From Myxococcota bacterium (GTDB lineage: Bacteria; Myxococcota_A; UBA796; UBA2385), in contig JBIJDH010000006.1 in NCBI GenBank assembly GCA_044344255.1, positions 96,001-160,000 on the forward strand: a stretch of DNA of 64,000 nt, written 5' to 3'. Of the stretch, positions 6,773-45,097 are shown one piece after another; within the stretch, counting starts at the first letter, position 1, and each line of letters begins with the position of its first letter. The position numbers and the translations under genes are program-made. The notes beneath the pieces are model-generated. The model was not told the origin of the DNA and ran no database searches. It saw only the letters and a list, made by a program, of their open reading frames with translations.

Positions 6773-6923
6773 GCGAGGCTCCAGGGGACGGGGGCAGGGG
6801 AACGGGGAGGAGGGACCGCTCGAGGGCGCCCCTCCTGGACTCACCGATGTCTATGCCCGCTCACCCTCCGTCCGATCACTGTGCTGCCGCTCGGGGGCCC
6901 CGTTCGCGCGGCCCCCGCGCCGC

Positions 6924-9692: not shown

Positions 9693-9793
9693 GGGGATAC
9701 CCGTTCGGACTTCGGAGAGGAGATCGAGGAGAGGGGACACCGGGGCCGGAGGGCGCCGACCGCCGAGGCGGAGGGCGCCCTCGGCGGCGAGGG

Positions 9794-12235
9794 CTAGAGC
9801 CCGAGCAGGACGTATACTGTGCCGGTGCCCGATCCGCCGATGTCGGAGCCTGCGGCGCCGAGCAGCACGTCGCCCTTGCCGTCGGCGTTGAGGTCGGCCC
9901 CGCTGGCGAGCCCGGAGCCGAGGGCGTCCCCGGAGGCGGAGCCCCAGATCGCGCCCTTGGCGTTGGCGCTGGTGAGCGCCCCGGACAGCGCGGAGGCGTC
10001 AGGGAAGAGCCAGACGGCGCCCGCGTTGCTCGACGCGGTGTCGTTGCCGTCGTCGCCGATAAGGAGGTCGGCGGCGCCGTCGCCGGTGAAGTCGGTGTCG
10101 TAGACCACGGCGGAGCCGAAGTCGCCGGCCGTGCCGGAGAGGGTGGCGGCGGCGTCGGTGTCGGACTGGTCGCCCGTCTGGCTGTCCCAGAAGACCCAGA
10201 CCTTCCCGAGCGCCTCGCTGCTGACGACGAGCTCGGCGCTGCCGTTGCCGTCGAGGTCACCGGGCTGGCCGAGCTGGTCCCCGCCGAGGGCGCCGCTGGA
10301 GGTCGTGCCGAGCACGCGGGTGGTGTAGATGTCGTCCATGCGGTCGCCGCCCCAGGAGAGCGAAGCGTCGCCGCTCACGAGGTACACCGCGCCGCCGCCG
10401 CTGGCGCCGTCGTCCATCCCGGTCGCGCCGGTGGCGATGTCGGGGTAGCCGTCGCCGTCCCAGTCGCCGACCGCCAGCGTGGTCCCGACGTAGTCGTAGC
10501 CGGTGCTGCCGTAGAGGCGGGCGTCGGCGTCGCCGAAGTCGTAGCCCTCGCCAAAGCCGCTCGCGGAGCTGAAGATGGCCACGGAGCCGGCGTCGCGGGT
10601 GGAGCTCTCGCTGCCCGAGTAGTAGTTGTCGAGCGGCCCGCCCACCAGCACCTCGGCGAAGCCGTCGCCGTCGAGGTCAGCCGAGGCGGAGATGCGCACG
10701 CCGTCCTGGTCGCTGTCGCCCACGAAGTAGGTGTCGACGCTGCTGGTGGTGGTGGTGCTCGGCGCCCCGTTGAACAGCCAGGCCACACCATAGGTGCTGT
10801 AGGCGCCGGTGGTGAGGAGGTCGGCGGTTCCGTCACCGTTGGTGTCGGCGGAGGGCCCCGCCATGATGCCGACCAGGTAGTAGTAGTAGCTCCCGGTGAC
10901 GGTGGCGCTGTCGTAGCTGGTGGCGGCGCCTGCGGCGGTGGGGAGGTCATCGCCGGGGATGACGAAGACGCTGCCGTAACCACCGCTGGTGGTGCCGAGG
11001 GCGACGTCGTCGATCCCGTCGCCCGTGAGGTCTCCGCCCATCGACATCGACTGGTAGTTGCCGAGGCCGGTGGCGGAGCTCGTGCCGGTCACGTAGCCGC
11101 TGTACAGGTCATTGATGCTGAAGTCGTCGATCACGCCGCTGCAGTCGTTGTCGATGCCGTCCCAGACCTCGTCTTCGGGGCCGGTGATCGTGGGATCAGT
11201 GTCGTTACAGTCGGTCGGGTAATCGACGCCGTCGCCGTCCTGATCGTAGTCGTTGCCGCCGTCACAGGCCTCGTCGATGCCGTCGTACCAGATCTCGTCG
11301 GCGCCGGGGTAGGCCTCGGGGTTGGTGTCGTCACAGTCGGCGTCGACGGTGGAGCCGTCGCCGTCCTGGTCGAAGTCGTCGGCGCCGTCGCAGTCCTGGT
11401 CGACGCCGTCGTACCAGGTCTCCTCGGCGCCGGGGTTGATGAGGGAGTCGGTGTCGTCGCAGTCATCGTCGAGGGGGTAGCCGTCGGCGTCCTGGTCGAA
11501 GTCGTCGCCGCCGAGGCAGTCCTGATCGACGCCGTCGTACCAGATCTCATCGGCGAAGGGGTAGGCCTGCGGGTCGAGGTCGTCGCAGTCATCCTCGACC
11601 AGCGAGCCGTCACCGTCCTGGTCGTAGTCGTTGGCGCCGTCACAGTTGGTGTCGATGCCGTCGTACCAGGTCTCTTCCATCCCGGGGTTGATGGTGGCGT
11701 CATCGTCGACGCAGTCGTCGCCGCCGGTCTCGGCGCTGCCGTAGCCGTCGCCGTCGCTATCGACCTGCACGCTCGCGGTGATGGATACGGGGAGGAAGTC
11801 CCCGGTGGCGCTGTCCGTGATCTTGAGCGTCGCGTCGTGGCTCCCCCAGTCGGCGGGCACGAGCGCGAGGTTGATCGCGGCGGACTCGCCGGAGGCCAGC
11901 GTGTCTTGGTCGATGCCGACCGTGTAGGCCTCGGTGTGGGCGCTCGTGAGCTCGAGCTCGAGCACCACATCGGCCGCCCCGTCGCTCGTGACGGTGAGGC
12001 CCTGGGAGCCCGCGCCGCCGACGAAGATCACGCCGAAGTCGATGCTCGTGGGATCGACCGTGAAGCTCCCCGCGTCGCCGCCATCGGAGCCTCCGTCTGC
12101 GCCATCGGCGCCGTCGCCTCCGTCTGCGCCGTTGGCGGTGTCAGTTGTGCCGCTTCCAAGCTGGCCTTTGCCAGAGGAGCACGCGACAAGGAGGACGAGG
12201 AGCGTGGGGGAGAGGAAGTGGGATTGGGTGCGCAT
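9794..12235 (-). CDS. Surface lipoprotein 3, paralog with 5 Cys/Asp repeats + FG-GAP propeller
   Basis: LLVLLVAC lipobox; same architecture; ends VYVLLGL. Confidence 0.85.
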   Translation of the reverse strand: MRTQSHFLSPTLLVLLVACSSGKGQLGSGTTDTANGADGGDGADGADGGSDGGDAGSFTVDPTSIDFGVIFVGGAGSQGLTVTSDGAADVVLELELTSAHTEAYTVGIDQDTLASGESAAINLALVPADWGSHDATLKITDSATGDFLPVSITASVQVDSDGDGYGSAETGGDDCVDDDATINPGMEETWYDGIDTNCDGANDYDQDGDGSLVEDDCDDLDPQAYPFADEIWYDGVDQDCLGGDDFDQDADGYPLDDDCDDTDSLINPGAEETWYDGVDQDCDGADDFDQDGDGSTVDADCDDTNPEAYPGADEIWYDGIDEACDGGNDYDQDGDGVDYPTDCNDTDPTITGPEDEVWDGIDNDCSGVIDDFSINDLYSGYVTGTSSATGLGNYQSMSMGGDLTGDGIDDVALGTTSGGYGSVFVIPGDDLPTAAGAATSYDSATVTGSYYYYLVGIMAGPSADTNGDGTADLLTTGAYSTYGVAWLFNGAPSTTTTSSVDTYFVGDSDQDGVRISASADLDGDGFAEVLVGGPLDNYYSGSESSTRDAGSVAIFSSASGFGEGYDFGDADARLYGSTGYDYVGTTLAVGDWDGDGYPDIATGATGMDDGASGGGAVYLVSGDASLSWGGDRMDDIYTTRVLGTTSSGALGGDQLGQPGDLDGNGSAELVVSSEALGKVWVFWDSQTGDQSDTDAAATLSGTAGDFGSAVVYDTDFTGDGAADLLIGDDGNDTASSNAGAVWLFPDASALSGALTSANAKGAIWGSASGDALGSGLASGADLNADGKGDVLLGAAGSDIGGSGTGTVYVLLGL

Positions 12236-26243: not shown

Positions 26244-29200
26244 TCAGGCCGAGCGGCGCCGCCGGCCGAGCGTGCGGAGGCCGATCAGCGCGCCCAGGAG
26301 CCAGGCGCCGAGGCTCGAGGCGGGGCGCGACGCTGTGACGGCGCAGGCACAACCGCCCTTGCCGTCGCTGGTGCCGCCCTCTTCGGCGGCGCCGTCTGCC
26401 GTGTCCTCCGTGTTGGCGGCGGTGTCTTCGGGGAGGTCGCCGGAGTCATCGTCATTCGACGTGTCCTCGCCGTCACAGTCCTGATCGATCTCGTCTCCGC
26501 CGATCTCGGGCGCCCCCGGCCAGGCGTCGGGGTTGTGGTCATCGCAGTCCCCGGTGGGCTCCTCGGTGGTGGCCACGCCCTCTCCCGCGCAGCTCAGATC
26601 CGCGCTCTCGGCGGTGCTGGTCTCATCGGGGCGGTACCCGTCGTCGTCGAAGTCGAGGAAGCAGAGCTCGAGGCCATCGCAGTCCTGGTCGAGCGCGTCG
26701 TCCACGCCCTCGGCGGCGCCGGGGTTCACGGCTTCGTCCGTGTCCTCACAGTCGGGCTCGGCGGAGGCCGCGGCATAACCCTCGGGCGCCGTACAATCGA
26801 GCGTGCTCCGCGTGGGATCGGTGTAGGTGTCTCCGTCCTGATCGGCAAACCAGTCCACCGCGCCGATGGCGGTGGGGCCGTCCGCCGTGCCGTCGCAGTC
26901 ATTGTCGACGCTGTCGCAGACCTCGGTGGCGTCGGGGTTGACCCCGGCGTCACCGTCGTCACACTCCAAACAGGCCGCGAAGCCATCCGAGTCGGCGTCA
27001 TCGTACGCGACCGAGCCGTCGCAGTTGTAGTCGGTGGGGTCGCTGCAGTCGGTCTCCGACGCGCCCGGGTGAAAGGCAGGGTCGGTGTCGTCGCAGTCCT
27101 CTCCGGGGGCGGAGCCGAGGGCCTCCCCCGGATCTGAACAGTCGAAGTCGAGGGAGTCGACCACGACGTCGGTGTGCCAGCCGTCCCCGTCGCCGTCCGT
27201 ATAACAGAGCTCGCCTTCGTCGCAGTCCTGGTCGATGCCGTCGCCCGTGATCTCCGGTGCGCCCGGATAGACCGTGGCCTGCGTGTCGTCACAGTCCGTG
27301 TCGTCGTCCACGGCGGCCAGGGTCTCGTCGCAGAGCGAGATCGGCGTGGCGGGGTCGCCGAAGGTGTCGGCGTCCGTGTCTACGTAGAAGACGGAGTAGG
27401 TCGCCGCGGAGACCGAGCTGTCGGCGTCGTCGGCCTGACCGTCGCAGTCCTCGTCGGTGTCGGAGGCGTCACAGACCTCCGTGGCGCCGGGGTTCACCGC
27501 CGCGGCGGCGTCATCGCAGTCCGAGCTCGTGGCGGAGTAGCCGCTCGGCAGATCACAGGCGCTGCGGACGGTGGTGCCGCCATACCCATCGCTGTCACTG
27601 TCCTGATACCAGCTGCTCTTTGTGGCCGAGGAGACGGAGCTGTCGGCGTCATCGGCGAGGCCGTCGCAGTCCTCATCGGTGTTGGCGGCGTCACAGACCT
27701 CGGTGGCGCCGGGGTTGATCGCCGCCAGGGTGTCGTCGCAGTCGGTGGCCGTGGTCAGATACCCGGAGGGGATGTCGCAGGTGCTGGTGGTCGAAGTGCC
27801 GGCATACCCGTCGCTGTCGGCGTCGCGGTACCAGGTGCCCTTCGTGGCCGAGGAGACGGAGCTGTCGGCGTCGTCGGACAGGCCGTCACAGTCCTCATCC
27901 GTATTGGAGGCGTCGCAGACCTCGGTGGCGCCGGGGTTGATCGCCGCCTTCGTGTCATCGCAGTCGGTGCTGGTGGTCAAATAGCCGGTGGGCTGGTCAC
28001 AGGTGCTGGTGGTCGTGGTGCCGGCATACCCGTCGGTGTCGGCGTCGCGATACCAGGTGCTCTTCGTGGCCGAGGAGACGGAGCTGTCGGCGTCGTCCGA
28101 CAGGCCGTCGCAGTCCTCATCCGTATTGGAGGCGTCGCAGACCTCGGTGGCGCCGGGGTTGATCGCCGCCTTGGTATCGTCGCAGTCGGTGCTGGTGGTG
28201 AGGTACCCGGAGGGGATGTCGCAGGTGCTGGTGGTCGCGGTGCCGGCGTAGCCGTCGCTGTCGGCGTCGCGATACCAGGTGCCCTTCGTGGCCGAGGAGA
28301 CGGAGCTGTCGGCGTCGTCGGAGAGGCCGTCACAGTCCTCATCCGTATTGGATGCGTCGCAGACCTCGGTGGCGCCGGGGTTGATCGCCGCCTTCGTGTC
28401 GTCGCAGTCCGTGCTGGTGGTGAGGTACCCGGTGGGCATGTCGCAGGTGCTGGTGGTCGTCGTGCCGGCGTAGCCGTCGCTGTCGGCGTCTTGGTACCAG
28501 GTGCCCTTCGTCGCCGAGGAGACGGAGCTGTCGGCGTCGTCGGAGAGGCCGTCACAGTCTTCATCCGTATTGGAGGCGTCGCAGATCTCGGTGGCGCCAG
28601 GGTTGATCGCCGCCTTCGTGTCGTCGCAGTCGGTGCTGGTGGTGAGGTACCCGGAGGGCATGTCGCAGGTGCTGGTGGTCGCGGTGCCCGCGTAGCCGTC
28701 GCTGTCGGCGTCTTGGTACCAGGTGCCCTTTGTGGCCGAGGAGACGGAGCTGTCGGCGTCGTCGGAGAGGCCGTCGCAGTCCTCATCCGTGTTGGATGCG
28801 TCGCAGATCTCGGTGGCGCCGGGGTTGATCGCCGCCTTCGTATCGTCGCAGTCGGTGCTGGTGGTCAGATAGCCGGAGGGCATGTCGCAGGTGCTGGTGG
28901 TCACGGTGCCGGCGTAGCCGTCGCTGTCGGCGTCCTGGTACCAGGTGCCCTTCGTCGCCGAGGAGACGGAGCTGTCTGCGTCGTCCGACAGGCCGTCGCA
29001 GTCCTCGTCTACGTTGGCGGCGTCACAGATCTCGGTGGCGCCGGGGTTGATGGAGGCGTCCGAGTCGTCACAGTCCTCGCTCTCGATGTACCCGTCGCTG
29101 TCCGCGTCTGTCTCGGCGACCCAGACGAGATCGTCCACCACTCCGGAGGCGCCGGTCGCCGTGAAGATCACGTGATCGATGAGGGTGGTGGAGGAGACGG

Positions 29201-30251
29201 AGATGGGCTGGAGGGTGGTGCCGATCGAGATGGAGCTCGAGGTGATCACCCCGCCCGCGCTGTCATAGGCGACGAGGGTGCCGGTCCCCCCTTTATTCGA
29301 CCCCGCGTTGAGGGTCACCGAGGTCGCAGGCGGCGAGAAGGTGAAGGTCTCGGAGAGGCCGGTCGCCGGCCCCCCGTTGTTCCAAGCCAGAAAGTTGGGC
29401 GCTGTGTGGCCCGTTACGCCGAAGTTTCCGCATTCGTTCAAGACCTCGAAGGCGGCCGAGGAGAGCGTCAGACCCACAGAGCTGTAGAAGGTGGCCGGAG
29501 TGGAGGCCGACGAGAAATTGCAGGGCGCCGAGCGATCATCGAAGTTGATCGTGGTGTAGGTCGGGTCAACCTCGATGGGGTATCGGGCGCCCCGGTCGTC
29601 CACCCTCACGCGAAAGCCACCCTCCTCCGCTTCAAAACGAGAGGGCAGGAGCTGGCCATCCGCGTCCCAGGCGAGCAGCCCCGAGACCAGGAGCTGACCG
29701 CCTCCCTCGAGCTGCATGCCGATCTGCTGGGCGCCGACCTGCAGGCTGGCTCCGGTCACCTGAACGCCGAGGCTCAGCTCCCCGCGACCCTCCGGCGCCG
29801 CGGCCAGCGTCCAGCCCTGCTCCAGACCGCCGTCCTTCACGGCCCACCACTCGAGGACCTCGCCGCGCGCCAGCTCCAGCCGAGGGTGGCAGTCGCGGAT
29901 CACACCCTCACAACCTCCGAGCGCGGCGACAGCGGCGCCGGGCTCCACCCCCGCTCCCCCTCGCCCGAAGCCCCCCGGGCGAAGGGAGACCTGCCCGGCC
30001 CCGACATCCAGCAGGACGGCGTCGCCCTCGAAGCGCGCGGTGAACGAGGGCAGCTCTGCGGAGTAGCCGCCGCCCGCGGCGTCGAAGGAGCCGTAGACGG
30101 GCTCTGCCTGGAGCTCGGGGCCGAGGTCGCTGCCGGAGGAGACCCCTGCCTGAACACCGTGAAGCGCTGAGTCTTCGGGGGCCGGAGGCGCGCAGGCCGC
30201 CGCGAGGGCGAGGGGGAGCAGGGAGGACGAGATCAGAGAGATAGATCGCAA
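26244..30251 (-). CDS. Large surface protein: N-terminal YPIEVDP-ending domain, beta-sandwich, long Cys/Asp (MopE-type) repeat stalk, C-terminal MYXO-CTERM
   Basis: Probable TTG start at 30251 after GGAGA; LALAAAC lipobox-like; ends GGCACAV...TM...RRRRSA. Confidence 0.85.
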   Translation of the reverse strand: MRSISLISSSLLPLALAAACAPPAPEDSALHGVQAGVSSGSDLGPELQAEPVYGSFDAAGGGYSAELPSFTARFEGDAVLLDVGAGQVSLRPGGFGRGGAGVEPGAAVAALGGCEGVIRDCHPRLELARGEVLEWWAVKDGGLEQGWTLAAAPEGRGELSLGVQVTGASLQVGAQQIGMQLEGGGQLLVSGLLAWDADGQLLPSRFEAEEGGFRVRVDDRGARYPIEVDPTYTTINFDDRSAPCNFSSASTPATFYSSVGLTLSSAAFEVLNECGNFGVTGHTAPNFLAWNNGGPATGLSETFTFSPPATSVTLNAGSNKGGTGTLVAYDSAGGVITSSSISIGTTLQPISVSSTTLIDHVIFTATGASGVVDDLVWVAETDADSDGYIESEDCDDSDASINPGATEICDAANVDEDCDGLSDDADSSVSSATKGTWYQDADSDGYAGTVTTSTCDMPSGYLTTSTDCDDTKAAINPGATEICDASNTDEDCDGLSDDADSSVSSATKGTWYQDADSDGYAGTATTSTCDMPSGYLTTSTDCDDTKAAINPGATEICDASNTDEDCDGLSDDADSSVSSATKGTWYQDADSDGYAGTTTTSTCDMPTGYLTTSTDCDDTKAAINPGATEVCDASNTDEDCDGLSDDADSSVSSATKGTWYRDADSDGYAGTATTSTCDIPSGYLTTSTDCDDTKAAINPGATEVCDASNTDEDCDGLSDDADSSVSSATKSTWYRDADTDGYAGTTTTSTCDQPTGYLTTSTDCDDTKAAINPGATEVCDASNTDEDCDGLSDDADSSVSSATKGTWYRDADSDGYAGTSTTSTCDIPSGYLTTATDCDDTLAAINPGATEVCDAANTDEDCDGLADDADSSVSSATKSSWYQDSDSDGYGGTTVRSACDLPSGYSATSSDCDDAAAAVNPGATEVCDASDTDEDCDGQADDADSSVSAATYSVFYVDTDADTFGDPATPISLCDETLAAVDDDTDCDDTQATVYPGAPEITGDGIDQDCDEGELCYTDGDGDGWHTDVVVDSLDFDCSDPGEALGSAPGEDCDDTDPAFHPGASETDCSDPTDYNCDGSVAYDDADSDGFAACLECDDGDAGVNPDATEVCDSVDNDCDGTADGPTAIGAVDWFADQDGDTYTDPTRSTLDCTAPEGYAAASAEPDCEDTDEAVNPGAAEGVDDALDQDCDGLELCFLDFDDDGYRPDETSTAESADLSCAGEGVATTEEPTGDCDDHNPDAWPGAPEIGGDEIDQDCDGEDTSNDDDSGDLPEDTAANTEDTADGAAEEGGTSDGKGGCACAVTASRPASSLGAWLLGALIGLRTLGRRRRSA
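27260..29040 (-). repeat. Intragenic 222-bp (74-aa) tandem repeat, 8 copies (6 near-identical)
   Basis: Unit TE(I/V)CDASNTDEDCDGLSDDADSSVSSATKGTWY.DADSDGYAGT.TTSTCD.P.GYLTTSTDCDDTKAAINPGA; antisense ORF starts recur at 28279/28501/28945 (multiples of 222). Confidence 0.92.
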
Positions 30252-30582
30252 GATATCTCCAAGTACGGCGCGCGGCTTGCGAGTCCCGAGCGGTGTGCCC
30301 TGTCGGGGTCGGACGGGGCGGAGCGCAGGGGATCGCTGAACAACGGGCGTGCACCGGTGAGCGTCAACAAGACCGACCCCAGGAGTACCCTGTCGCCCGC
30401 CGCTGGCCCGCAGCTTGCCACCTCGGCCGCCGCGCGGCAAGGGGGAAGAGAGCCGAGCCCGGCGCTGGACCCGTGGACCTGGACCTGCCGTGGGTCATCG
30501 GCGGGCGCGGGAGCGGGGTCGACGTCTGTCCCGCGCCCTCCGCGGGCTACGCGCGTGGCTATGAGGAGGCCATGGAGGTCTC

Positions 30583-35302: not shown

Positions 35303-36835
35303 TCAGCCCTTGAGGAAGAGCAGGGCCGTCTGCAAGGTGACCGCCAGCTCGGGGCTCGGGTCACTCCACGCCTTCCGCGCTTCGAGGAGCACGCCCTCGA
35401 GGCCCTTCAGGCGGAGGGCGGCGGCGGCGTCGATGGCGCGGACGTCTCGCTCGCCGACGCGGGAGAGGAGGTGGGCCTCGACCCACTCCCGATCGTGGCC
35501 GGTCATCGCGCGGAGGGGCGCCTGCTGGATGGCGTCGCCCGTGGTCGCGGACAAGGTGGCGAGGGCCTCTTCGCGCAGGGCCGCGTCGCCGGGGACGTAG
35601 GTGAAGGGCGCCTCGCCGCGCTCGGCCTGCTTGAGCTGTCGCCGGGCCTGATAGGCGGCCGGCTCCCACACCGCGCGGAGGGGCGTCGCGAGCCGGAGGG
35701 CGAGGGCGGCGGCGGGGCCCCAGGAGCGAGGTCCGGACGCGGGCGGGAGGTCGAGGCGGGTCACGATCGTGGCCCAGGCCCCCTCGCGCGCGGCGCGGTC
35801 ACCGGAGAGCAGCCGGTCCGTGAGCTCGGGGAGGGCGGCGGGGTCGGGGGCGGAGGGACCGGCGGGGGGGCGCAGCCGCGCGAGGCTGCGGTCGATCGCG
35901 GCCACCAGCGGCTCGCTCCAGCCCCAGCGGCGCCGCGCCTCCTCGAGGGCCGGGACCGCCGCGCGGAGGCCGATGGCGCCGATCGCGTCGGCGGCGCGCG
36001 GATCGCGGGCGCCGAGCTCGTAGACCAGCTTGTGCTCGGCCCACTGGCGGTCGTGCCCCTCCATCGCCTCGATGGCCGCGACGTCGATGGCGGGGGAGGC
36101 CTCCTCGAGGCTGGCCCAGAGGCGACGGATGAGCGCGGGGTCACCTGGTGCGTAGACGAGCCCGAGGGCCTCGGCGGTGGAGCCCCCGGCGAGCGCCTGG
36201 AGGGCCTCGGCGGCGGCGGCCGCGCCCGCCGGCCAGACGCTGTCGAGGCCGGTGATGGTGCGGGTGTAGAGGGTCCGGAGCGGCGTCTGGTGGGGCTTGT
36301 TGAGGGTGGCCGGGAGGGCGAGCTTCTCGATGAGCCCCTCCCAGGCGTGCATCCGCGCGGTCACGCTCGAGGCGCGCAGGGCCACGAGCAGGCCGGCGAT
36401 CGCCTCGGGCCCGGCGAGCTGGCGGAGGCTCCAGGCGGCCTCGGCGGCGTCGAGGGGGGCGAGCCCCTGGCCGAGCTCGGCGCCGAGACGAGCGGCGACG
36501 GCGGGGGAGGGGCGGAGCAGGGCGAGGGCGCGGGTGGCCGTGACGCGCACGGCGGGGCGGGGATCTGCCTCGAGCTTCTCGAAGAGGGGGATCGCTTCGG
36601 TCACCCCGAGGGCGGCGAGGGTCTCGATGGCCCGGGTGTCCCCCTGCTCGAGGGCGCGCTGCTCCAGGAGCTTGTCGGCGGCTGCCCGCTCCTCGGCGCT
36701 GAGGCGACCGATGTTGTCGAGATCGTAGGTGAGCTCGCCCTGGCTTCCGCCGCGGGCGACCTCATCTTGAAAGCGCTCGAACGGCGTGAGCTCTTGGGGA
36801 GTCGCGCCTGCTTCCGTGGCTGAACCAGCCTCCAT
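35303..36835 (-). CDS. HEAT-like alpha-solenoid protein with internal duplication; candidate immunity protein
   Basis: RAIETLAALG..EAIPLFEKL...VRVTATRAL HEAT-like units; two ~165-aa repeats (Y.PGD.AL...AM.GHDR.W.E...G.RD.RA.DA); 30 bp downstream of the toxin on the same strand. Confidence 0.7.
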   Translation of the reverse strand: MEAGSATEAGATPQELTPFERFQDEVARGGSQGELTYDLDNIGRLSAEERAAADKLLEQRALEQGDTRAIETLAALGVTEAIPLFEKLEADPRPAVRVTATRALALLRPSPAVAARLGAELGQGLAPLDAAEAAWSLRQLAGPEAIAGLLVALRASSVTARMHAWEGLIEKLALPATLNKPHQTPLRTLYTRTITGLDSVWPAGAAAAAEALQALAGGSTAEALGLVYAPGDPALIRRLWASLEEASPAIDVAAIEAMEGHDRQWAEHKLVYELGARDPRAADAIGAIGLRAAVPALEEARRRWGWSEPLVAAIDRSLARLRPPAGPSAPDPAALPELTDRLLSGDRAAREGAWATIVTRLDLPPASGPRSWGPAAALALRLATPLRAVWEPAAYQARRQLKQAERGEAPFTYVPGDAALREEALATLSATTGDAIQQAPLRAMTGHDREWVEAHLLSRVGERDVRAIDAAAALRLKGLEGVLLEARKAWSDPSPELAVTLQTALLFLKG

Positions 36836-36865: not shown

Positions 36866-39800
36866 TCAGGGCGAGCCGCTCGCTGTCTTCTGGGCGGCGT
36901 ACTCGTCCATCCGCTGCTTGTTCTTGTCCTCCGCCAGGGTGACCATGCTGACCCGGTCGCCCTGCTGGTAGGTGCCCTTGATGCCGCCGCCCGTGAAGCG
37001 GTGGTCGGCCTCTTCGATGTTCGCGACCTTGACCGCGCAGGCGTAGAACGTGATGTCGGGGACGGGCAGCGCCTTCTCCTCGAAGAAGCCGGCGAAGGTG
37101 GGCTGCTCGATCTTGTTGAAGATGCTCTGATCGCGGCTGGAGCCGAGGCCCACGAAGCCGAGGTACCGCCGCCCGCTCACCTTGTTGGAGGCGTGCATGG
37201 CGTACGCCTGGGAGAGCGCGCCCCAGAGCTGGGTGTTCCAGGCGCCGTCGATGTTGAGGCCGTCAAAGAGGCCGCCGAGGGCGCTGGACTCGAGGGCGAC
37301 CTGGGCGTTGGCCTTGGCCATCGAGCAGCCGGGCTTGCCCGACCAGAAGGCGAAGGTGGAGGCGCCGGCCGCCTGCTTCGACATGTACTTGGCCAGCGCG
37401 TCGCAGATGGGATCGAACTCCGAGATGATGGACTTCATCGTGTCGGAGCCGAGGTCCTTGTACCGCCCGGCGGGGTCGACCGCGGGGGCGGCCTTGTAGG
37501 CGGAGTTCGTGCGCAGGATGGTCGAGACGGTCTGCAGCCAGATGCGCTCGGCGTCGCCGCCGGGGTCGCCCATGCCGATGCTGTTGGAGATGCGGATGAA
37601 GCGGCCCTTGAAGGTGGCGTAGAACTCGGAGGTCAGGGTCTCGCGCGGGTTGAGGTCGACCGGCTTCGCCGACTCGCCGAAGGCCGTGAAGCCCTTGGCG
37701 ATGTGCGTGCTGACCTCGGCTTCTTTCGTCCAGACGAGCGACTTGACCTTGTCGCGGGCGCCGTGCTTGTCCGGCATCGCCCACAGATTGTTGAGCAGCC
37801 TTCCGAGCGAGGTGATCCCGCCCTTGGCGGCGCGGAGGGCGGCGGCGGTCTCGGAGCGGACGGTGGTGTCGGCGATCGTGTTGAGCCGCCCCGTCCAGTC
37901 GGCGAGGAGCTGGTCGGCCGGGGTCGGCGTGCTGGCGACCATCGGGGTCAGGCTGCCGCCCGCCGTGGCCACCCACATGCTGTGCGACTCGGCCCCCGCG
38001 GTGAAGCCCTGGCGCTGCTCGAGGGCGCCGGTGAGCTCGGTTTGCTGGGCCTCCGGTGTGGAGGCGCCGGTGACCTGGCCGGCGGTGGCGGCGTCGATCG
38101 CCTGCTGGACCTCGGCGGGGAGCTCGACGCTGGTGACGCTCACGAGCTCGACGGAGATGTTGCTGCTGCGCAGATCGGCGGCGGTCCCGCGCTTGATCTC
38201 GGTGGCGATGGCCCCGAACTGCGCGGACAGGCCGACCACGCCCACCGCGGCGGTGCGGGCGGCGGCGGCGGAGCCGAGGGCGGAGGTGAGGCGGCTCTGG
38301 GCGCTCCCCTGGCGGCCGGCGTCGAGCGGCTGGTCATTGCTGCTCTTCAGCCGCGCGGCGCCGTGCATGGTCATGCCGATGGCGCCGTAGTCCTTGTCGC
38401 GGACGGTGAGCCGGGGCGTGACCAGGGTGACCGAGCCCGGGGTGGCGGTGGTGCCGCGGCCTTGCTGGCTGTTGCCGCCGGTGTTGGCGGCGTCGACGCC
38501 GTTGCCGCCGGTGGCCTGCCCTTGGTTCGCGTTCGACTGCTGGGCGGTGCCCGGCGCGGCGCCGGCCTGGGTCTGGGCGCCGTCCGGCGTGGCGGTGTTG
38601 GTGCCCGCCTGCACCTGCGTGCCCTGCTGGGTGCCCGACTTCGCCTTGGACTCCTTCGGCTTGAAGAGGTCCTTGGCCTTGGCGATCAGCTTCTCGATGC
38701 CGTCGTCGATGCGCTTGTGGAGGGCCTGGAGGACCTCCCGCACCTTCTTGCCGATGCCGGAGACGCCGATCAGCTTGGCGAGCAGATCGATGGCGATGGG
38801 GATCATGCCGGCGAGGGCCGACTCGACCTGGGCCGCCGCGCCGCCGATGGCGCCGGTGGCGATGGCGTGCACCGAGCCGATGATCGACTTCACGACGCCG
38901 TAGATGCGGCTGATCTGATCCCGCATGAATTCGTAGAGGCGCCAGGCGGTCATCACCGCCTGAACGATGGCGCCCACGGGGTTGAACATCGTCGCGATCT
39001 TGGTGACCGCGGCGATGACGATCTTCTCCATGAGGAAGCTCTGGATCTTGCTCACGACCTCGTCGTAGATGCCGTCGAGGTGCTCGGTCAGGTTGTTGGC
39101 CAGCCCCTCGAGGCCGCCCGACCACATCGTGTCGACGAAGCCCACCACCTGCTGCATCTTCTCGACGTTCTCGGCGCCGATGTGCTTCTTGGCCTTCTCG
39201 AGGACGTACTCCTTGTCGATGCCGGTCACCTGCATGACGAGGGAGGCGATGCCCCCGGCGTCGAAGGCGGTGGGCATCGTGATGCCGGCGTCGCCGGCCT
39301 GACCGGTGAGCCAGTTCACGAAGCCGGTCTTCAGGTGATCGACGAAGTGGTCCTTGAAGTTGTTGAAGCCGAGGGCGGCGGCGTCGATGAGGTTGCCGAC
39401 GAACTGGCCCGGGCTCTTGACGATGATGCTGATCGTCTCTTCGCCCTGGGCCATCACGCTGCGGAACTCGGCAGGGTCAATTCCGCAGAGCTTGAGGGCG
39501 GCCTCGAGGGCCATCCACAGGAGCTCCTGCCAGTTGCCGGTGGCGAGGGCCTTGGCGATCTCGAGGGCGGCGTTGACCGCCTCGTTGAAGGTGTCGGAGA
39601 TGGCCTTCAGCGTGTTGTTGATCGCGTCGCAGACCTGGGCGATGGTCTCCTTCAGCCGGTCGGCGAAGTGGTCGACCATCTCACAGGCGAGCTCGACGGC
39701 CTCGTCGATGAAGGCGCAGAGCGCCCGGGCGAGCCCGGGGAAGATGCTGCCGAGCAGGTTGTTGACGAGGCTCTTCAGGTACTCGCCGAAGGCCTTGATC

Positions 39801-42800
39801 ACGCTCTTGACGAAGCTGGCGGCGGCCTCGATGATCCTGTTGGCGAAGGCCTTGGCGGCGTCGAGGATCGTGGCGACGAGGCTGCGGACGGCGTCAAAGA
39901 TGGCGGTGACGGCCTCGGCGACGGCCTTGATGGCGTCGGCGACGAAGTCTACGGCCTTCTGCCACCAGGAGCGGTCCTTGGACTTCTCCTCGGCGGCCTT
40001 CTTCTCATCGGCGGCGCTCTTCTCGGCCTTCGAGACCTCCTGGCCGGCCTTCTGCTCGGCCTTCTGGAACTCGCTGTCGATCTTGGCGCCGTCCTGGGTG
40101 ACCCGGCTCTGAATGGAGCTGAGGTCAGAAGACTGCTTCCGACGGGCGTCGGAGTCGACCTTGCTGATCTCCTTCTGCTGCGCCTGGATCGTGCTCTGCT
40201 GCTCGGACGTGATGTCGGCGCGGGCCGAGCGGACCGCGTCCTCCTGGGCCGTCTGGGCCTCCTGGTTCGAGCGCTCGACCTCGGTCTGGGCGCGGCTGAT
40301 CTCGGTCTCGTGGGCGGTGTCGCGAGTGGTGGCGGCGGCGTCGAACTCGGCCTGGGCCTGGCTCATCGCCCCGTCCATGCCCGGGGCCATCGCCTCGTCG
40401 AACTTGGCCTGCACGTCGGCGGGCAGGTTGAGCGAGAGGTACTCCTCGAACTCGGGGAGCTGCTCGGTGCCGGAGATCGCGCCGAGCGCGATGTCGGGCA
40501 CCTCGGTCTCTTCACTCAGCTCCTTCAGCGTGACCTGCTCGGGGCCGGGGCCGGTGCGGATGGCCAGCTCGGCCTCGACCTGGGCGGCCTGGGCCTGGGC
40601 CATACCCTCGGAACGCTGACGCTCGGTGCGCTGGGGGTCCTGCTCACCCTGGAGCTTGATCGCCGGCTTCGGGTTGGGCGTGGTGGCGATGGTGCCGTCG
40701 GTGGTCTTGATCTGGCGGATCGCGCTGGCGCCGGCCTGGGCCTTCTGGTCGTCCGTCGCCGCGGCGGGGAGGCTGCTCAGGCTCTGGCCGACCGAGGCGT
40801 TGCCGGTGAAGCGGCCCGGGTTGGTCGGCGTGACCGGGGGCGGCGTGGGCGTCTGCCCCTGCACCTGATCGGTGATCTCGGCGCGCTGGGCGTCGACCTC
40901 GCCGTCGCCCTTCGCGTCCGGCGCCATCTGGCCGGACATCGTGGCGGTGAAGGTGGGGAGGGCCTCGTTGAGGGCCGCTCCCTCGACCTGGAAGCCTGCG
41001 TCGACGTTCCCGCCGAGCGAGGGCCAGGAGGCCGCCTGCTGAGTGGCGCCGGCCGTGGCGAAGTTCTTGAACGACTCGGCCGCGGTCTGCCCCGCGGCGA
41101 CGGGCTCGGGGGCCGGCGCCGGGGCCGAGCCCGCGCCCATGCCGCCGGAGCCGCCGATGGAGCCGGCCGAGCTCGTGGAGGAGGCCGTGGAGGTCGAGCC
41201 GCCGCCGCCGCCACCGCCACCGCCACCGTCTGTGGAGGTGGTGGAGGTGCTCGATGCGGTGGAGCCGGTCGATGCGGCCGAGCTGCCCTCTACGCTGGAC
41301 TCCCCGCTCGCGCCGCCGGTGGCGCCGCCCTCCTCGCTGTTGCCGAAGCGCTGGCTCATGCGGTCGGCGATGGCCGGGGCCTCTTCACTGCCGGCGAGCC
41401 GAGACACCGCCTCGGCGGGGTTGGAGAGGGCCTGCTGCGCCTGCCCGGCGTAGCCCTGGGCCTGCCCGGCGACCTGCTGGACCTGCCCGGCGGCGCCCTG
41501 CACGGCGCTGCCGATCTCGCCGAGGGTGCCTCCCATGCCGGAGAGCTGGCCCGCGGTCTCGCTCACCCGCCCGGCGAGCTCGCCCACGCTGCCGAGCGCG
41601 CCGCTGAGCTCGCCGGCCACGTCGGCGCCCTGGCTGAGCGCGTCTCCGAGGCCGGGGGCCGCGCCGAGGAGGGCGCTGACGGCCTCGCCTGCGAAGCCCT
41701 TGGCCTCGCGCTCGTGAGCGTCACCGGGCTGAGAGATACCCGCGCCACCGCCACCTTCGACGGCGTGGTGGAGCTCTTCGGCGAGGAGCTTGACCTTGCC
41801 GGGGTCGCCCATCGAGGGGGCCTGACCGCGGCCAAAGAAGATGTCCTGACCCTCGGTCATCGCGCGGGCCTTGTGGCCCTGGGCGTAGGCTTGCGAGGCG
41901 GCGTCGGTGTGCACGCGCACCTTGTCGATCGCGCCGCCGAAGAGGCCCTGGAAGCCCTTCTTCAGGTCTGAAGGGAGCTGCTGGCCCTTGCCCGTGGGGC
42001 GGGCGACGTCGGGGCGCGCGTCCCGGCGGAGGAAGCCGAAGGCGTTGCGGTTCTTCTTGCGGCCGGCGGGCTTGGGGGCCTCGAAGATGCGGTCGAGCAG
42101 GGCGTCGGGCACGCCCTCGGCCTTGAGCCGGCCCTTGTAGTGCTCGCTGCCGCCGGTGAAGGTCTTGGCGGCCGAGACGAGCTCGTCGTCGGTGTAGATC
42201 TCGCGGATGGCCTCGTACCAGCCCTTGCCACCGCGGTTCTCGTAGTGCCACCACTCCTTCTTATTGTAGGACTTCTCCCAGCCGTTGTGGGCGGGGATGC
42301 GGTTCCAGCCGAACTTGGCGGCGAGGCCGGTGACGTCGAGGAACTTCTTCTGGCCGGCGCCCTTGCCGAAGGGGTTGGTGTCGGCGGTCTTGAGCTGGTC
42401 TTCCGTCAGCGTCACCATCAGGGCGCTGTTGTCGCTCTCGCCTGGAGTCCCGCCCGTGGGCGCGGCCTGGGTGCGGTCACCGCCGTTCCCTGCGCCCTGC
42501 TGCTCGTTCGGCTTCGCCTCTTCCTTCACGGGGAGGTAGAGCCGGAACATCATCCGCTCGGTGCCCCCCTCCTCCTTCTGGGCGTCCTTCAAGATGAGCC
42601 AGGGGAGGTCCTGGTTGAGATCGAGGGCGCGGCCGGTCTTGTGCCAGCTCACGTTGTCGGCGCCCACCTTGCGGGTGGTGTAGTCGAGGCCGCGCGAGGT
42701 GTCGCCGAAGCCGGTCGACACGTCGTGCCCGGTGATCTTCTTGACCTCGTCGGCGAACTTGCGGAAGCCCTCGACCACGGCGTCGGACAGCTTCTCGTGC

Positions 42801-43996
42801 GGCTTCGTGCCGTCCTTGGCCACCGGCGTGAGCTTGTGGGTGGTCTTATCCTTGTCGGCGTCGACGTCGCGGGCGAGCACGGCGCCCTCGCCGGCCTGCT
42901 GCCCGGACTCGACGGCGAGCCCCGCCGAGGCCACGGCCGGCCCGTCGACGTCGAGCCCGCCGAGGTCTGCGCCCTGCAGACCGCCGTTCGTGGCGTCGGC
43001 GACCGCGCCTTCGCTGGCGAGCGAGCCGCCGAGGGCGGTGACCGGCGCGGTGACCGGCGCGGTGTCCGCGTCGTTGTCGACGCTGTGACCGTGGCCGATG
43101 GACTGGACGACCGTGGCGGCGCGGGCCTCGGCCTCGATCTCGGTGGCGTCGGTGGGCCGGGAGACGTTCATGCCCTCGCCGCGGTCACCGGTCGGGCGCA
43201 GGCGGCCCTCCTGGTGCTGTACGACGTGGGTGAGCTCGTGCGCGATGAGGTGAAGGCCCTCTCGGCTGCTCGGGTTGAACTCGCCCTGGTTGAAGTAGAC
43301 GTCGGTGCCCACGGTGAAGGCGCGGGCGTGGATGGCGTCGGCGGCCTGCACGGCGGCGCCGTCGGTGTGGAGGCGGACCTGCGAGAAGTCCACCCCGCCG
43401 AAGGCGTTGCCGAGCTTGCTCTCGAGCTCGGTGGAGATGGGCCGGCCGCCGCGGCGGGTGGCGGTCTCGACCTTGGAGATGGAGCGACGATCCCAGGCGC
43501 CGCCGCCGGGGGCGTCGGCGTGGCGGGCGACGGCCTCCCCGGTGAGTGCGCTCGGCCCGGACACCCCGAGGCCAGCGACCCCGAGGCTGCTGCCGCCTCC
43601 GTTTCCGGAGCCGTACTGGCCGAGCCAACCGTTGACGAAGCTGTTCGAGAAGAGGCCGCTGGCGCTGTCGGCGACGAGCACGCCGGCGGCGCCGAGGGTC
43701 ATGGCGCCCTGGACCACCTGGACGGGGCCGCCGTCGATGCCCGAGAGCGCGGCCTGCACGAGGCTGTTGCCGTAGACCTCATGCAGCGAGGCGTTCAGGC
43801 CCGCCTGGGGCTCCTGACCCGGCAGGTGCCCCGCGATCCGTCCGGAGCTCTGCTCCGGCGACCGCACACGCTGTTCGGCGCGCTCTTCTTCCTCGCCGCG
43901 GAGGCCGGGGATCGGGCCCCTGGACGGCGCAGGCCGGCGACCCCGGGAGGAGTCGGTTTGAGGACCGGAAGACTCGAAGCCAAAGGAAGGGGGCAT
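36866..43996 (-). CDS. Giant polymorphic toxin (~2376 aa): DUF4157 - M15 Zn-peptidase - degenerate DUF4157 - helical region - C-terminal CD38-like ADP-ribosyl cyclase/NADase
   Basis: ATG 43996 after GGAGG; DFSQVRLHTD...ARAFTVG...LIAHELTHVVQ; SWHKTGRALD...EWWHYE; VRVHTD...ARAMTEG...LLAEELHH; FWSG...ALESSALG...LWGALSQAYA...SIFNKIEQP. Confidence 0.85.
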   Translation of the reverse strand: MPPSFGFESSGPQTDSSRGRRPAPSRGPIPGLRGEEEERAEQRVRSPEQSSGRIAGHLPGQEPQAGLNASLHEVYGNSLVQAALSGIDGGPVQVVQGAMTLGAAGVLVADSASGLFSNSFVNGWLGQYGSGNGGGSSLGVAGLGVSGPSALTGEAVARHADAPGGGAWDRRSISKVETATRRGGRPISTELESKLGNAFGGVDFSQVRLHTDGAAVQAADAIHARAFTVGTDVYFNQGEFNPSSREGLHLIAHELTHVVQHQEGRLRPTGDRGEGMNVSRPTDATEIEAEARAATVVQSIGHGHSVDNDADTAPVTAPVTALGGSLASEGAVADATNGGLQGADLGGLDVDGPAVASAGLAVESGQQAGEGAVLARDVDADKDKTTHKLTPVAKDGTKPHEKLSDAVVEGFRKFADEVKKITGHDVSTGFGDTSRGLDYTTRKVGADNVSWHKTGRALDLNQDLPWLILKDAQKEEGGTERMMFRLYLPVKEEAKPNEQQGAGNGGDRTQAAPTGGTPGESDNSALMVTLTEDQLKTADTNPFGKGAGQKKFLDVTGLAAKFGWNRIPAHNGWEKSYNKKEWWHYENRGGKGWYEAIREIYTDDELVSAAKTFTGGSEHYKGRLKAEGVPDALLDRIFEAPKPAGRKKNRNAFGFLRRDARPDVARPTGKGQQLPSDLKKGFQGLFGGAIDKVRVHTDAASQAYAQGHKARAMTEGQDIFFGRGQAPSMGDPGKVKLLAEELHHAVEGGGGAGISQPGDAHEREAKGFAGEAVSALLGAAPGLGDALSQGADVAGELSGALGSVGELAGRVSETAGQLSGMGGTLGEIGSAVQGAAGQVQQVAGQAQGYAGQAQQALSNPAEAVSRLAGSEEAPAIADRMSQRFGNSEEGGATGGASGESSVEGSSAASTGSTASSTSTTSTDGGGGGGGGGGSTSTASSTSSAGSIGGSGGMGAGSAPAPAPEPVAAGQTAAESFKNFATAGATQQAASWPSLGGNVDAGFQVEGAALNEALPTFTATMSGQMAPDAKGDGEVDAQRAEITDQVQGQTPTPPPVTPTNPGRFTGNASVGQSLSSLPAAATDDQKAQAGASAIRQIKTTDGTIATTPNPKPAIKLQGEQDPQRTERQRSEGMAQAQAAQVEAELAIRTGPGPEQVTLKELSEETEVPDIALGAISGTEQLPEFEEYLSLNLPADVQAKFDEAMAPGMDGAMSQAQAEFDAAATTRDTAHETEISRAQTEVERSNQEAQTAQEDAVRSARADITSEQQSTIQAQQKEISKVDSDARRKQSSDLSSIQSRVTQDGAKIDSEFQKAEQKAGQEVSKAEKSAADEKKAAEEKSKDRSWWQKAVDFVADAIKAVAEAVTAIFDAVRSLVATILDAAKAFANRIIEAAASFVKSVIKAFGEYLKSLVNNLLGSIFPGLARALCAFIDEAVELACEMVDHFADRLKETIAQVCDAINNTLKAISDTFNEAVNAALEIAKALATGNWQELLWMALEAALKLCGIDPAEFRSVMAQGEETISIIVKSPGQFVGNLIDAAALGFNNFKDHFVDHLKTGFVNWLTGQAGDAGITMPTAFDAGGIASLVMQVTGIDKEYVLEKAKKHIGAENVEKMQQVVGFVDTMWSGGLEGLANNLTEHLDGIYDEVVSKIQSFLMEKIVIAAVTKIATMFNPVGAIVQAVMTAWRLYEFMRDQISRIYGVVKSIIGSVHAIATGAIGGAAAQVESALAGMIPIAIDLLAKLIGVSGIGKKVREVLQALHKRIDDGIEKLIAKAKDLFKPKESKAKSGTQQGTQVQAGTNTATPDGAQTQAGAAPGTAQQSNANQGQATGGNGVDAANTGGNSQQGRGTTATPGSVTLVTPRLTVRDKDYGAIGMTMHGAARLKSSNDQPLDAGRQGSAQSRLTSALGSAAAARTAAVGVVGLSAQFGAIATEIKRGTAADLRSSNISVELVSVTSVELPAEVQQAIDAATAGQVTGASTPEAQQTELTGALEQRQGFTAGAESHSMWVATAGGSLTPMVASTPTPADQLLADWTGRLNTIADTTVRSETAAALRAAKGGITSLGRLLNNLWAMPDKHGARDKVKSLVWTKEAEVSTHIAKGFTAFGESAKPVDLNPRETLTSEFYATFKGRFIRISNSIGMGDPGGDAERIWLQTVSTILRTNSAYKAAPAVDPAGRYKDLGSDTMKSIISEFDPICDALAKYMSKQAAGASTFAFWSGKPGCSMAKANAQVALESSALGGLFDGLNIDGAWNTQLWGALSQAYAMHASNKVSGRRYLGFVGLGSSRDQSIFNKIEQPTFAGFFEEKALPVPDITFYACAVKVANIEEADHRFTGGGIKGTYQQGDRVSMVTLAEDKNKQRMDEYAAQKTASGSP

Positions 43997-44089
43997 CCTG
44001 CCTCCGAACGCACGGATACGCGGGGATGTTATCACCGCCGGCCGTCCTGGTCGGCACAAAGCGGGTGCCTTTTGTTGGAGATTCCGACC

Positions 44090-45097
44090 TTGAGCCGTCC
44101 CGTCCACCTGCGCAGGCTGCCGCTCTCCCTCGACGTGTTCGATGACGAGGCCTTTCACCGCGGCCTGCTCGAGCGGGTCGAGCGGGACGTCGTGCTCCAG
44201 GGGCAGCCCACCCCGGCGATCCACCTGTTCCACGACGATCACGAGCGAGTGCTCGACTGGTCGCGGGTGAGCGCGGCTGACCCCGACGCCGATGTCGGCG
44301 CCACCTTCGCCGCCCTCGCCGACGGGCGCGGGGTAGAGCGCCGCGTGGTCGTGGCGATGCTCGATGACCGAAAGGGCAGCCCCGCCGCCTTCATCCTCGA
44401 GCAGCTCCGCGAGGATGGCGAGCCCCGCGGCTGGTGGCTGGCGCTCCGGCCGTTCACGTGGAACGCTGCGCGGGTGGGGCGCTTCCACGGGGCCTGGCAG
44501 GTGGGGCAAGGGCAGGAGGGGCTGCCGCCGATGTTCGCCGAGCTCGTGAGCGCCGGCGAGGGGCGCCGCGCGGCCCGGGTCTTGCCTCCGGCGCCGCTCC
44601 AGCCCGACATCCGGGTCGCCTTTGGGGAGCTGCCCGAGGGGCAGGCGCCGCCCCAGGGGGTGGAGGGCTTCGCGAGCCTCGCCGTCGCGATGGTGCTGCC
44701 GGAGGTCCAGCGTGAGGGCATCGATCACGTCAAGGTGATCCGCCTCGCCGGCGCGGCCTGGGAGGAGTGGCACCTCCACGGCGACATGCCGGCCGACTTG
44801 GACGACATGGTGCGCTACATCGCGCAGCGAGAGAGCCCCGCCGAGGCCGTCGCCGTGGCCCAAGGGGTGCTCTTCATGGAGGAGGGCGAGCCGACGAAGG
44901 CGCTGCGGCTCCAGGCCGAGCGGGGCGGGAAGCGGGTGGAGCGTATCTTCACCTTCCGCTTCCCCGAGGGGCAGGCGCAACGCCTGCCCTCCCGCGCCTA
45001 CGCCCGCGGCCTCGGCCCCGTCGAGGAGGGGGAGGGGTGGCTCGGCGTCGAGCCGATGGTCCTCTTCGAGCTCGGCCCGCTCGGCGTGGACGCCTGA
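44090..45097 (+). CDS. Hypothetical protein divergent from the toxin gene
   Basis: TTG at 44090 after GGAGA; globular composition; the upstream part of ORF 42140..45097 is antisense shadow of the toxin. Confidence 0.65.
   Translation: MSRPVHLRRLPLSLDVFDDEAFHRGLLERVERDVVLQGQPTPAIHLFHDDHERVLDWSRVSAADPDADVGATFAALADGRGVERRVVVAMLDDRKGSPAAFILEQLREDGEPRGWWLALRPFTWNAARVGRFHGAWQVGQGQEGLPPMFAELVSAGEGRRAARVLPPAPLQPDIRVAFGELPEGQAPPQGVEGFASLAVAMVLPEVQREGIDHVKVIRLAGAAWEEWHLHGDMPADLDDMVRYIAQRESPAEAVAVAQGVLFMEEGEPTKALRLQAERGGKRVERIFTFRFPEGQAQRLPSRAYARGLGPVEEGEGWLGVEPMVLFELGPLGVDA

Follow-up and report, generated by a model that had tools for sequence, protein, structure and literature searches.

In a 64,000-nt stretch of DNA from a bacterium of the phylum Myxococcota (GenBank assembly GCA_044344255.1, contig JBIJDH010000006.1, positions 96,001 to 160,000; in the following "the window"), a giant gene on the minus strand encodes a protein whose C-terminal domain, as judged from family profiles and a predicted structure, is a divergent member of the ADP-ribosyl cyclase (ARC) superfamily in which all catalytic residues are retained. 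The same protein contains DUF4157 domains (Pfam eCIS_core) further upstream, and its gene is followed by a gene for a HEAT-repeat protein. Taken together, this is probably an ARC-type NAD(P)+ glycohydrolase toxin that is a DUF4157-based cargo of an extracellular contractile injection system (eCIS), with the downstream HEAT-repeat protein conferring immunity. That toxins of this class kill bacteria, and by which mechanism, was already established in 2025; new here is a divergent, eCIS_core-linked variant that is invisible to current annotation and has a HEAT-repeat neighbor.

The original prediction had read four short motifs in the last part of the protein as the catalytic set of CD38, and all four were recovered from the minus-strand sequence and its translation: FAFWSG (37354-37337), ALESSALGG (37297-37271), LWGALSQAYA (37228-37199) and SIFNKIEQP (from 37126), all within the last 244 codons of the toxin open reading frame (ORF). 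In this 244-aa piece, the key residues are W86, E104, W126, S130 and E165, which correspond to W2218, E2236, W2258, S2262 and E2297 of the full protein. An exhaustive HMMER search defines a family of 154 cluster representatives at E <= 1e-3 (116 at <= 1e-10); a word-index protein search was far less sensitive and returned 6 relatives of the domain and 1 of the HEAT partner. In 155 domain instances from the 154 representatives, W86, S87 (135/148), E104, W126, S130 and E165 are the most conserved positions (Table 1), and the motif set is therefore a selected family feature and not a chance resemblance. When aligned by the family profile, the motifs pair with FWS, TLED, W..LS..FA and IF..VE of bovine CD38 and with their counterparts in the bacterial ARC toxins Tac1 and ARCtox.

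The homology of the domain becomes visible only when the family profile is compared with PDB sequences. With the query and 58 relatives (59 sequences), and with rows reported at E <= 10, this search gave five rows, all of which are ARC proteins and none of which comes from outside the ARC family: Tac1 (9ouf_A, E 1.9e-5), ARCtox (9ro8_A, named "ADP-ribosylcyclase toxin", 1.8e-4) and three bovine CD38 sequences with E-values from 1.1e-3 to 5.2e-2 (3gh3 1.1e-3, 3p5s 1.6e-3). Tac1 is thus the best match. If its 159-residue chain is assumed to carry a 14-residue tag, counting along the alignment pairs E104, W126 and E165 with Tac1 residues E516, W540 and E573. As a side aspect, the molecule name of 9OUF reads "Ribonuclease" though the depositing paper describes Tac1, and name-based look-ups could be misled by this. 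An AlphaFold2 model of the domain, based on the 59-sequence alignment, reached a pLDDT of 94.8 and a pTM of 0.91, and the rows listed by Foldseek against the PDB are almost all CD38, BST-1, Aplysia cyclase and ARCtox, plus the Vibrio RDTND NADase domain. The domain has about 240 residues and aligns with CD38/BST-1 over the model residues 1-240, including the N-terminal helical lobe. Predicted structure and alignment together thus reveal the two-lobe alpha/beta ARC fold, the essential Glu, the second Glu, the two Trp and the Ser that are characteristic of the ARC/CD38 superfamily. The comparison of an AlphaFold model with CD38 and Aplysia cyclase by fold searches, which the original prediction had proposed as a check, was in this way positive, and its ARC/CD38-family reading is supported by the profile matches to two proven bacterial ARC toxins and to CD38 as well as by the near-invariant catalytic residues. 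Its upstream bound at 37450 had to be given up, as the model and the family profile indicate that the folded domain begins further upstream and covers at least 37600..36869.

Which chemistry can be expected from such a domain? The reaction would follow the scheme of Tac1 and CD38, with E2297 as the essential Glu. E2236 would favor hydrolysis of the cyclic intermediate, resulting in linear ADP-ribose and not cyclic ADP-ribose (cADPR) as the main product, and the target cell would be killed by the depletion of NAD+ and NADP+. According to the accessible parts of the study by Colautti et al. (PMC12356396), Tac1 E516 is equated with CD38 E146 and E573 with CD38 E226, all three residues E516, W540 and E573 were probed by mutagenesis, the E573A exchange abolished activity as well as toxicity, and E516 drives hydrolysis to linear ADP-ribose, with cADPR being released only when this residue is Ala. 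In ARCtox, the essential catalytic Glu is E356, the counterpart of CD38 E226 and Tac1 E573. As far as the available texts go, both characterized bacterial ARC toxins convert NAD+ and NADP+ to linear products, and no cADPR was detectable. Because the second Glu (E2236) is retained, the ARC domain likely acts by depleting NAD(P)+, with cADPR being at most a transient intermediate. The NADase "possibly producing cADPR" of the original prediction therefore stands as far as the ARC-type enzyme is concerned, whereas its cADPR part is weakened by the retention of E104.

It could nevertheless be argued that the enzyme mainly makes a signaling nucleotide, i.e. cADPR or, by base exchange, nicotinic acid adenine dinucleotide phosphate, and that the target is affected by the product and not by bulk depletion. 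Both reactions are possible on an ARC fold, the natural bacterial ARC Nac1, which has Ala in place of the second Glu, gives cADPR and ADP-ribose in about equal amounts and Tac1 E516A also releases cADPR (PMC12356396, accessible parts), and product toxicity was proposed as an alternative in the available text of Zhang 2012. However, it is the loss of the second Glu that turns the reaction towards cADPR, and this residue is kept here and in 146/152 of the family; the lack of detectable cADPR with either characterized toxin-type ARC points in the same direction, which makes this alternative improbable. A more radical alternative would be that only the shape resembles CD38, and that the domain is catalytically dead or acts on another substrate, for example as an N-glycosidase of the flavodoxin-like or nucleoside deoxyribosyltransferase type. 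Here, a number of observations have to be considered that speak against the ARC assignment as a whole: the 244-aa domain matches no Pfam family at E <= 1, PF02267 (Rib_hydrolayse) included, and no NCBIfam model; a single-sequence phmmer search against the PDB finds no ARC entry but only chance ClpP rows with E >= 0.56; Foldseek gave no match at E <= 1e-3, with 7.5e-3 as best value and TM-scores of 0.26-0.35 on query length; and the root-mean-square deviations determined by VIA are 4-6 A to the structures on Foldseek's list, at a sequence identity of 13-23% to solved ARCs in the VIA alignment. Such low identities and weak fold-search values, like the lack of Pfam and NCBIfam matches, would agree with a mere similarity in shape, but the two Glu, the two Trp and the Ser that are important in Tac1, ARCtox and CD38 are all kept and near-invariant across 154 relatives. 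Only selection for the same chemistry would be expected to maintain such a pattern, and the profile search yielded ARC entries exclusively. We therefore regard a shape-only resemblance as very improbable and an NAD(P)+-consuming ARC enzyme as the by far better explanation.

As to the delivery of this enzyme, domain 1 of DUF4157 lies N-terminal to the toxin domain and has an HExxH motif (HELTH), which is the arrangement expected for an eCIS cargo; on the whole toxin, PF13699 matches two stretches (E 4.7e-41, 139 bits). The domain recurs in the family: eCIS_core was found in 15/59 short family members, where no other Pfam family matched (E <= 0.01), and in 6/27 long members, in which the other domains found were a C-terminal calpain-type peptidase in two and a weak Band_7 in one. 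LXG, PAAR, Rhs, VgrG and CdiA domains were absent from all of these ARC-family members scanned with Pfam (59 short, 27 long). In the parts of the respective publications that are available, a DUF4157 protein is described to bind CIS spike-complex proteins in Streptomyces (PMC13277306), and DUF4157 is described as N-terminal in many eCIS toxins, with linkers that may exceed 1,000 aa (PMC8213781). A full eCIS-type gene set is encoded on contig C52 of the same genome (Table 1), and the toxin is encoded on contig C74. The N-terminal eCIS_core/DUF4157 region could dock the toxin to the spike or baseplate of the C52-encoded eCIS, and the toxin would then ride as cargo. The C52 locus also holds a 1,509-aa ORF without Pfam match, and elsewhere in the genome there are a further sheath-like match (C83:42216-42506) and an eCIS_core match (C43:106115-106309).

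The HEAT-repeat gene directly downstream is the last of the pair, as the next gene converges on it. Its 510-aa product consists of one unit of about 310-325 aa and a partial repeat of the C-terminal half of this unit, with a recurring GHDR.W.E motif. In Pfam, it matches only HEAT_2 and HEAT at E <= 1, and neither Imm74 nor Imm63, in a library that was not checked for the presence of Imm74 and Imm63 models. Single-unit homologues of about 310 aa are found near the ARC gene in 4/13 ARC loci, namely right behind the ARC ORF in L015 and L016 (10 nt after its stop or overlapping it) and at a distance of 1-2 kb on the downstream side in L011 and L012, and three of four homologues from related ARC loci have HEAT_2 matches above the cut-off (29.6-40.5 bits). 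Conversely, when 401 genomes of the phylum were searched with a profile of the partner family, 17 loci with near-full-length matches were detected. In eight of these, an ARC domain is encoded upstream (six within 1.5 kb and two more within 6 kb), compared to none of 13 generic HEAT-repeat loci, and at two further partner loci (L056, L057) the upstream ORFs match non-ARC parts of ARC-family giants. Because of this difference between partner-family and generic HEAT loci, the gene neighborhood marks the 510-aa HEAT-repeat protein as a likely immunity protein. The co-oriented gene product would block the ARC cleft in the producer cell.

The ARC assignment could be right and the surroundings nevertheless misread. 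The HEAT-repeat neighbor might be a chaperone, an adaptor or an unrelated protein, and/or the giant protein might not be an eCIS cargo and be exported or released by other means, with DUF4157 being a processing metallopeptidase only. Several findings weigh on this side. Among the 27 ORFs scanned in the window, there is no sheath, tube or baseplate gene, and the toxin gene lies outside any eCIS operon. As the sole eCIS locus is on another contig, we purely infer the loading of the toxin into the C52 machine, which is plausible. The occurrence of gp19 genes in 7/7 sampled genomes with ARC upstream of the partner gene, versus 198/401 in the phylum sample, does not help much, since gp19 is near-universal in the window's own order and the co-occurrence is thus nearly uninformative. 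In case of the HEAT-repeat protein (P0002), HEAT_2 reaches only 22.4 bits and stays below the cut-off of 27.7, nine of the 17 partner-family loci lack ARC in the upstream sequence inspected (for two loci, less than 3 kb of such sequence was available), and nine of the 13 ARC loci have no partner gene within their flanks. The known ARC immunity proteins (Imm74/Tci1, ARCimm) are small and unrelated, and Geller et al. report, in the accessible text, many eCIS toxins without immunity genes and an unknown role of DUF4157 (PMC8213781). On the other hand, divergent Myxococcota metagenome-assembled genomes (MAGs) repeatedly have the two genes close together on one strand (30 nt apart here, 10 nt apart or overlapping in L015 and L016), none of the 13 generic HEAT loci has ARC upstream, the L056 and L057 neighbors match non-ARC parts of ARC-family giants, and no trafficking-type Pfam domain other than eCIS_core was found in the ARC clade. 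A misreading of the surroundings therefore appears rather unlikely, albeit less so than the two alternatives concerning the chemistry, and a DUF4157-guided eCIS cargo with a HEAT-repeat immunity protein remains our preferred reading.

Table 1. Features of the toxin gene and of associated genes. Positions refer to the window unless a contig is given; residue numbers in brackets refer to the 244-aa C-terminal piece.
Feature	Position	Strand	Remarks
Giant toxin gene, 2,376 aa	36866..43996	minus	ATG at 43996, GGAGG 6 nt upstream; stop 36866-36868 (ORF list, translation, codon-position GC)
eCIS_core/DUF4157 domain 1 (aa 186-264)	43205..43441	minus	PF13699 E 2.3e-28 on piece; C74:139205-139441, 101.8 bits; intact HExxH (HELTH)
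Possible M15/LAS-type peptidoglycan peptidase segment (aa 377-645), lead only	42062..42868	minus	between the DUF4157 domains
eCIS_core/DUF4157 domain 2	41747..41977	minus	C74:137747-137977, 57.3 bits; HExxH degenerate (EELHH)
Weak SPFH/Band_7-like stretch	38051..38410	minus	directly before ARC domain; PF01145 E 1.6e-5, 25.5 bits vs cut-off 23.6
Predicted ARC domain (CD38-like ADP-ribosyl cyclase / NAD(P)+ glycohydrolase), aa 2133-2376	36869..37600	minus	PDB profile match, AF2 model, fold searches, family conservation
W2218 (W86) in FWSG	37343..37345	minus	146/148 in family; opposite FWS of bovine CD38
E2236 (E104), second active-site Glu	37289..37291	minus	146/152 in family; opposite Tac1 E516 and bovine CD38 TLED
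W2258 (W126) to S2262 (S130) in LWGALS	37211..37225	minus	Trp 37225-37223, Ser 37213-37211; W 149/151, S 151/151; W126 opposite Tac1 W540
E2297 (E165), predicted catalytic Glu	37106..37108	minus	147/147 in family; opposite Tac1 E573
HEAT-repeat gene, 510 aa, likely immunity protein	35303..36835	minus	30 nt after toxin stop
ORF, ~320 aa	44135-45097	plus	coding-type GC3 (GC at third codon positions), no Pfam match, divergent from toxin gene
eCIS set of the same genome (locus L017)	C52, ~235-253 kb		AAA+ ATPase with winged helix, small eCIS_core protein, 2 sheath, 2 gp19 tube, CIS_tube+LysM, Phage_GPD, gp25

The extent of the toxin gene deserves a comment. Coding-type codon-position GC sets in near 43950 on the toxin strand, and this switch together with the GGAGG-ATG arrangement places the start at 43996 and gives a protein of 2,376 aa. 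A 2,704-aa ORF of the raw list was rejected, as it is over-extended by about 330 codons (43997-44980, minus strand) that are antisense to the plus-strand ORF. A database copy of the protein (P0009) has 2,373 aa, with 99% identity to the toxin over the C-terminal domain. Between the DUF4157 domains and the ARC domain, there is a long helix-rich stretch followed by the weak SPFH-like stretch, and the Band_7-like stretch is also present in the relative P0028.

The segment between the two DUF4157 domains may be a second enzyme. For aa 377-645, 29 of the 30 named ESM Atlas neighbors belong to the Peptidase_M15_4 set, with a top score of 0.90. The segment has no Pfam or PDB sequence match, and a single-sequence AF2 prediction gave a model too poor for use (pLDDT 40). 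It contains SWHKTGRALD and EWWHYE, which we take to be LAS/M15 peptidase motifs. If this lead is true, the toxin has an additional enzyme aimed at the cell wall, and this would be an indication that its targets are bacteria.

The ARC-domain relatives come mostly from Myxococcota MAGs (Haliangiales, Kofleriaceae, Polyangia), and their patchy distribution (1/30 relatives) agrees with a mobile toxin cassette. In this protein and in 97/154 relatives, the ARC domain is located at the C-terminus. It is internal, with at least 150 aa following, in 34/154 relatives and in 22 of the 40 closest, and ARC is therefore not always the tip, a point that counts against our reading. The original description as a "C-terminal tip" is thus correct for this protein but does not hold for all relatives. 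The tails after an internal ARC domain (e.g. in P0011, P0020, P0026, P0027, P0035 and P0037) span 150-1,800 aa, and 17 of them form one BLAST cluster; a calpain-type Peptidase_C2 is the last domain of P0026 and P0035, and P0037 has two ARC copies. These ARC-internal relatives look like multi-effector giants. An origin of the post-ARC tails of about 510-530 aa as fused copies of the downstream HEAT gene was considered and rejected, as phmmer found no similarity; in BLAST, the tails group into clusters of their own.

The window has a GC content of about 70%, and its other genes encode MopE/FG-GAP surface proteins, a Ser/Thr kinase with WD40 repeats, a TonB-dependent receptor and housekeeping functions. 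Four large paralogues rich in MopE-type metal-binding repeats are encoded at 4322-12235 and 26244-30440, both on the minus strand, and three of them also have FG-GAP repeats and a HYDIN/VesB-like Ig domain.

How does the system compare to what is known? In the available text of Zhang 2012, Tox-ARC was defined with delivery by type II, V, VI and VII secretion systems (T2SS, T5SS, T6SS, T7SS) and with Imm74/Imm63 immunity, and this text mentions no link to Photorhabdus virulence cassettes (PVC) or eCIS and lists no delta-proteobacteria. ARC toxins, predicted in 2012, were proven to be active and structurally solved in two 2025 papers in the Journal of Biological Chemistry, in the context of T6SS, T7SS and contact-dependent inhibition systems (PMC12356396, PMC12605009). 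The partners listed in PMC12605009 are PAAR, RHS, FIX, LXG, EsxA, TPS, pyocin, Flp pilin and Fn3, and neither DUF4157/eCIS nor HEAT is mentioned in the text of both papers or in two supplement files of PMC12605009. One example in Figure 5 of the 2025 work comes from the myxobacterium Pendulispora, with an architecture that is not visible in the accessible version. The papers that a full-text search found on ADP-ribosyl cyclases together with contractile injection all concern T6SS. In the Pfam enrichment table of Geller et al. (PMC8213781), none of 7 overall occurrences of Rib_hydrolayse is in an eCIS operon (3/15 supplement files aside), and the invisibility of the clade described here to Pfam annotation explains why no ARC domains were counted in this Pfam-based survey of eCIS. 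The earlier statement that a pairing of this enzyme with DUF4157 and a HEAT-like partner is not described was thus fair, given its absence from both 2025 ARC-toxin texts and the other delivery and immunity types listed in the available text of Zhang 2012. The combination of ARC, DUF4157/eCIS and HEAT was not met in the searched literature, whose supplements or figures could still hold it.

Among the closest known systems is Tac1, the LXG toxin of the Streptococcus parasanguinis T7SSb (9OUF, PMC12356396). In both cases, the toxin domain is the C-terminal part of a multidomain protein, which in case of Tac1 is exported, and a protective gene lies downstream, a role that is predicted here. The differences are the trafficking domain (LXG versus DUF4157), the immunity protein (the Imm74 protein Tci1 versus the candidate HEAT-repeat protein) and the size, as Tac1 has a minimal ARC domain of about 145 aa, whereas the domain described here has about 240 aa with an N-terminal helical lobe; solved bacterial ARC toxin domains in general have 127-159 residues. 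ARCtox, the PAAR-ARC protein of Pantoea ananatis (9RO8, Martinkus et al. 2025, PMC12605009), is delivered by PAAR via T6SS and has a small, unrelated immunity protein. With the DUF4157-bearing eCIS-associated toxins, as described in the accessible parts of Geller et al. 2021 (PMC8213781) and Danov et al. 2024 (PMC11297309), our protein shares the N-terminal DUF4157 with HExxH, the very long linker, the C-terminal enzyme and the presence of an eCIS in the same genome, but the gene is far from the eCIS operon, and the NADases named there use RES or TIR domains instead of ARC. The locus would thus add an eCIS/DUF4157 delivery route and a new immunity family to the ARC toxins, and would provide eCIS engineering with another natural cargo that has a clear biochemical read-out.

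Beyond the single locus, a clade of about 154 clusters is left "hypothetical" by Pfam and NCBIfam annotation. It is conceivable, though we would place this slightly short of an even call, that this protein is a founding example of a Myxococcota-centered clade of full-length, two-lobe CD38-fold NADases that has been missed by family models, is dedicated to eCIS via DUF4157, and is neutralized by a new family of HEAT immunity proteins. If so, this would be the first link of the ARC fold to a phage-tail-like injection machine. The metazoan enzymes CD38, BST-1/CD157 and Aplysia ADP-ribosyl cyclase (PF02267) share only 13-16% identity with the domain described here, which has no PF02267 match, and they are secreted or membrane-bound ecto-enzymes, whereas ours sits within a giant bacterial toxin. 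In size and lobes, such a clade would be nearer to metazoan CD38/BST-1 than the minimal T6SS and T7SS ARC toxins are, and a bacterial ARC of roughly metazoan size would be useful for testing the proposed descent of CD38-type enzymes from bacterial polymorphic toxins.

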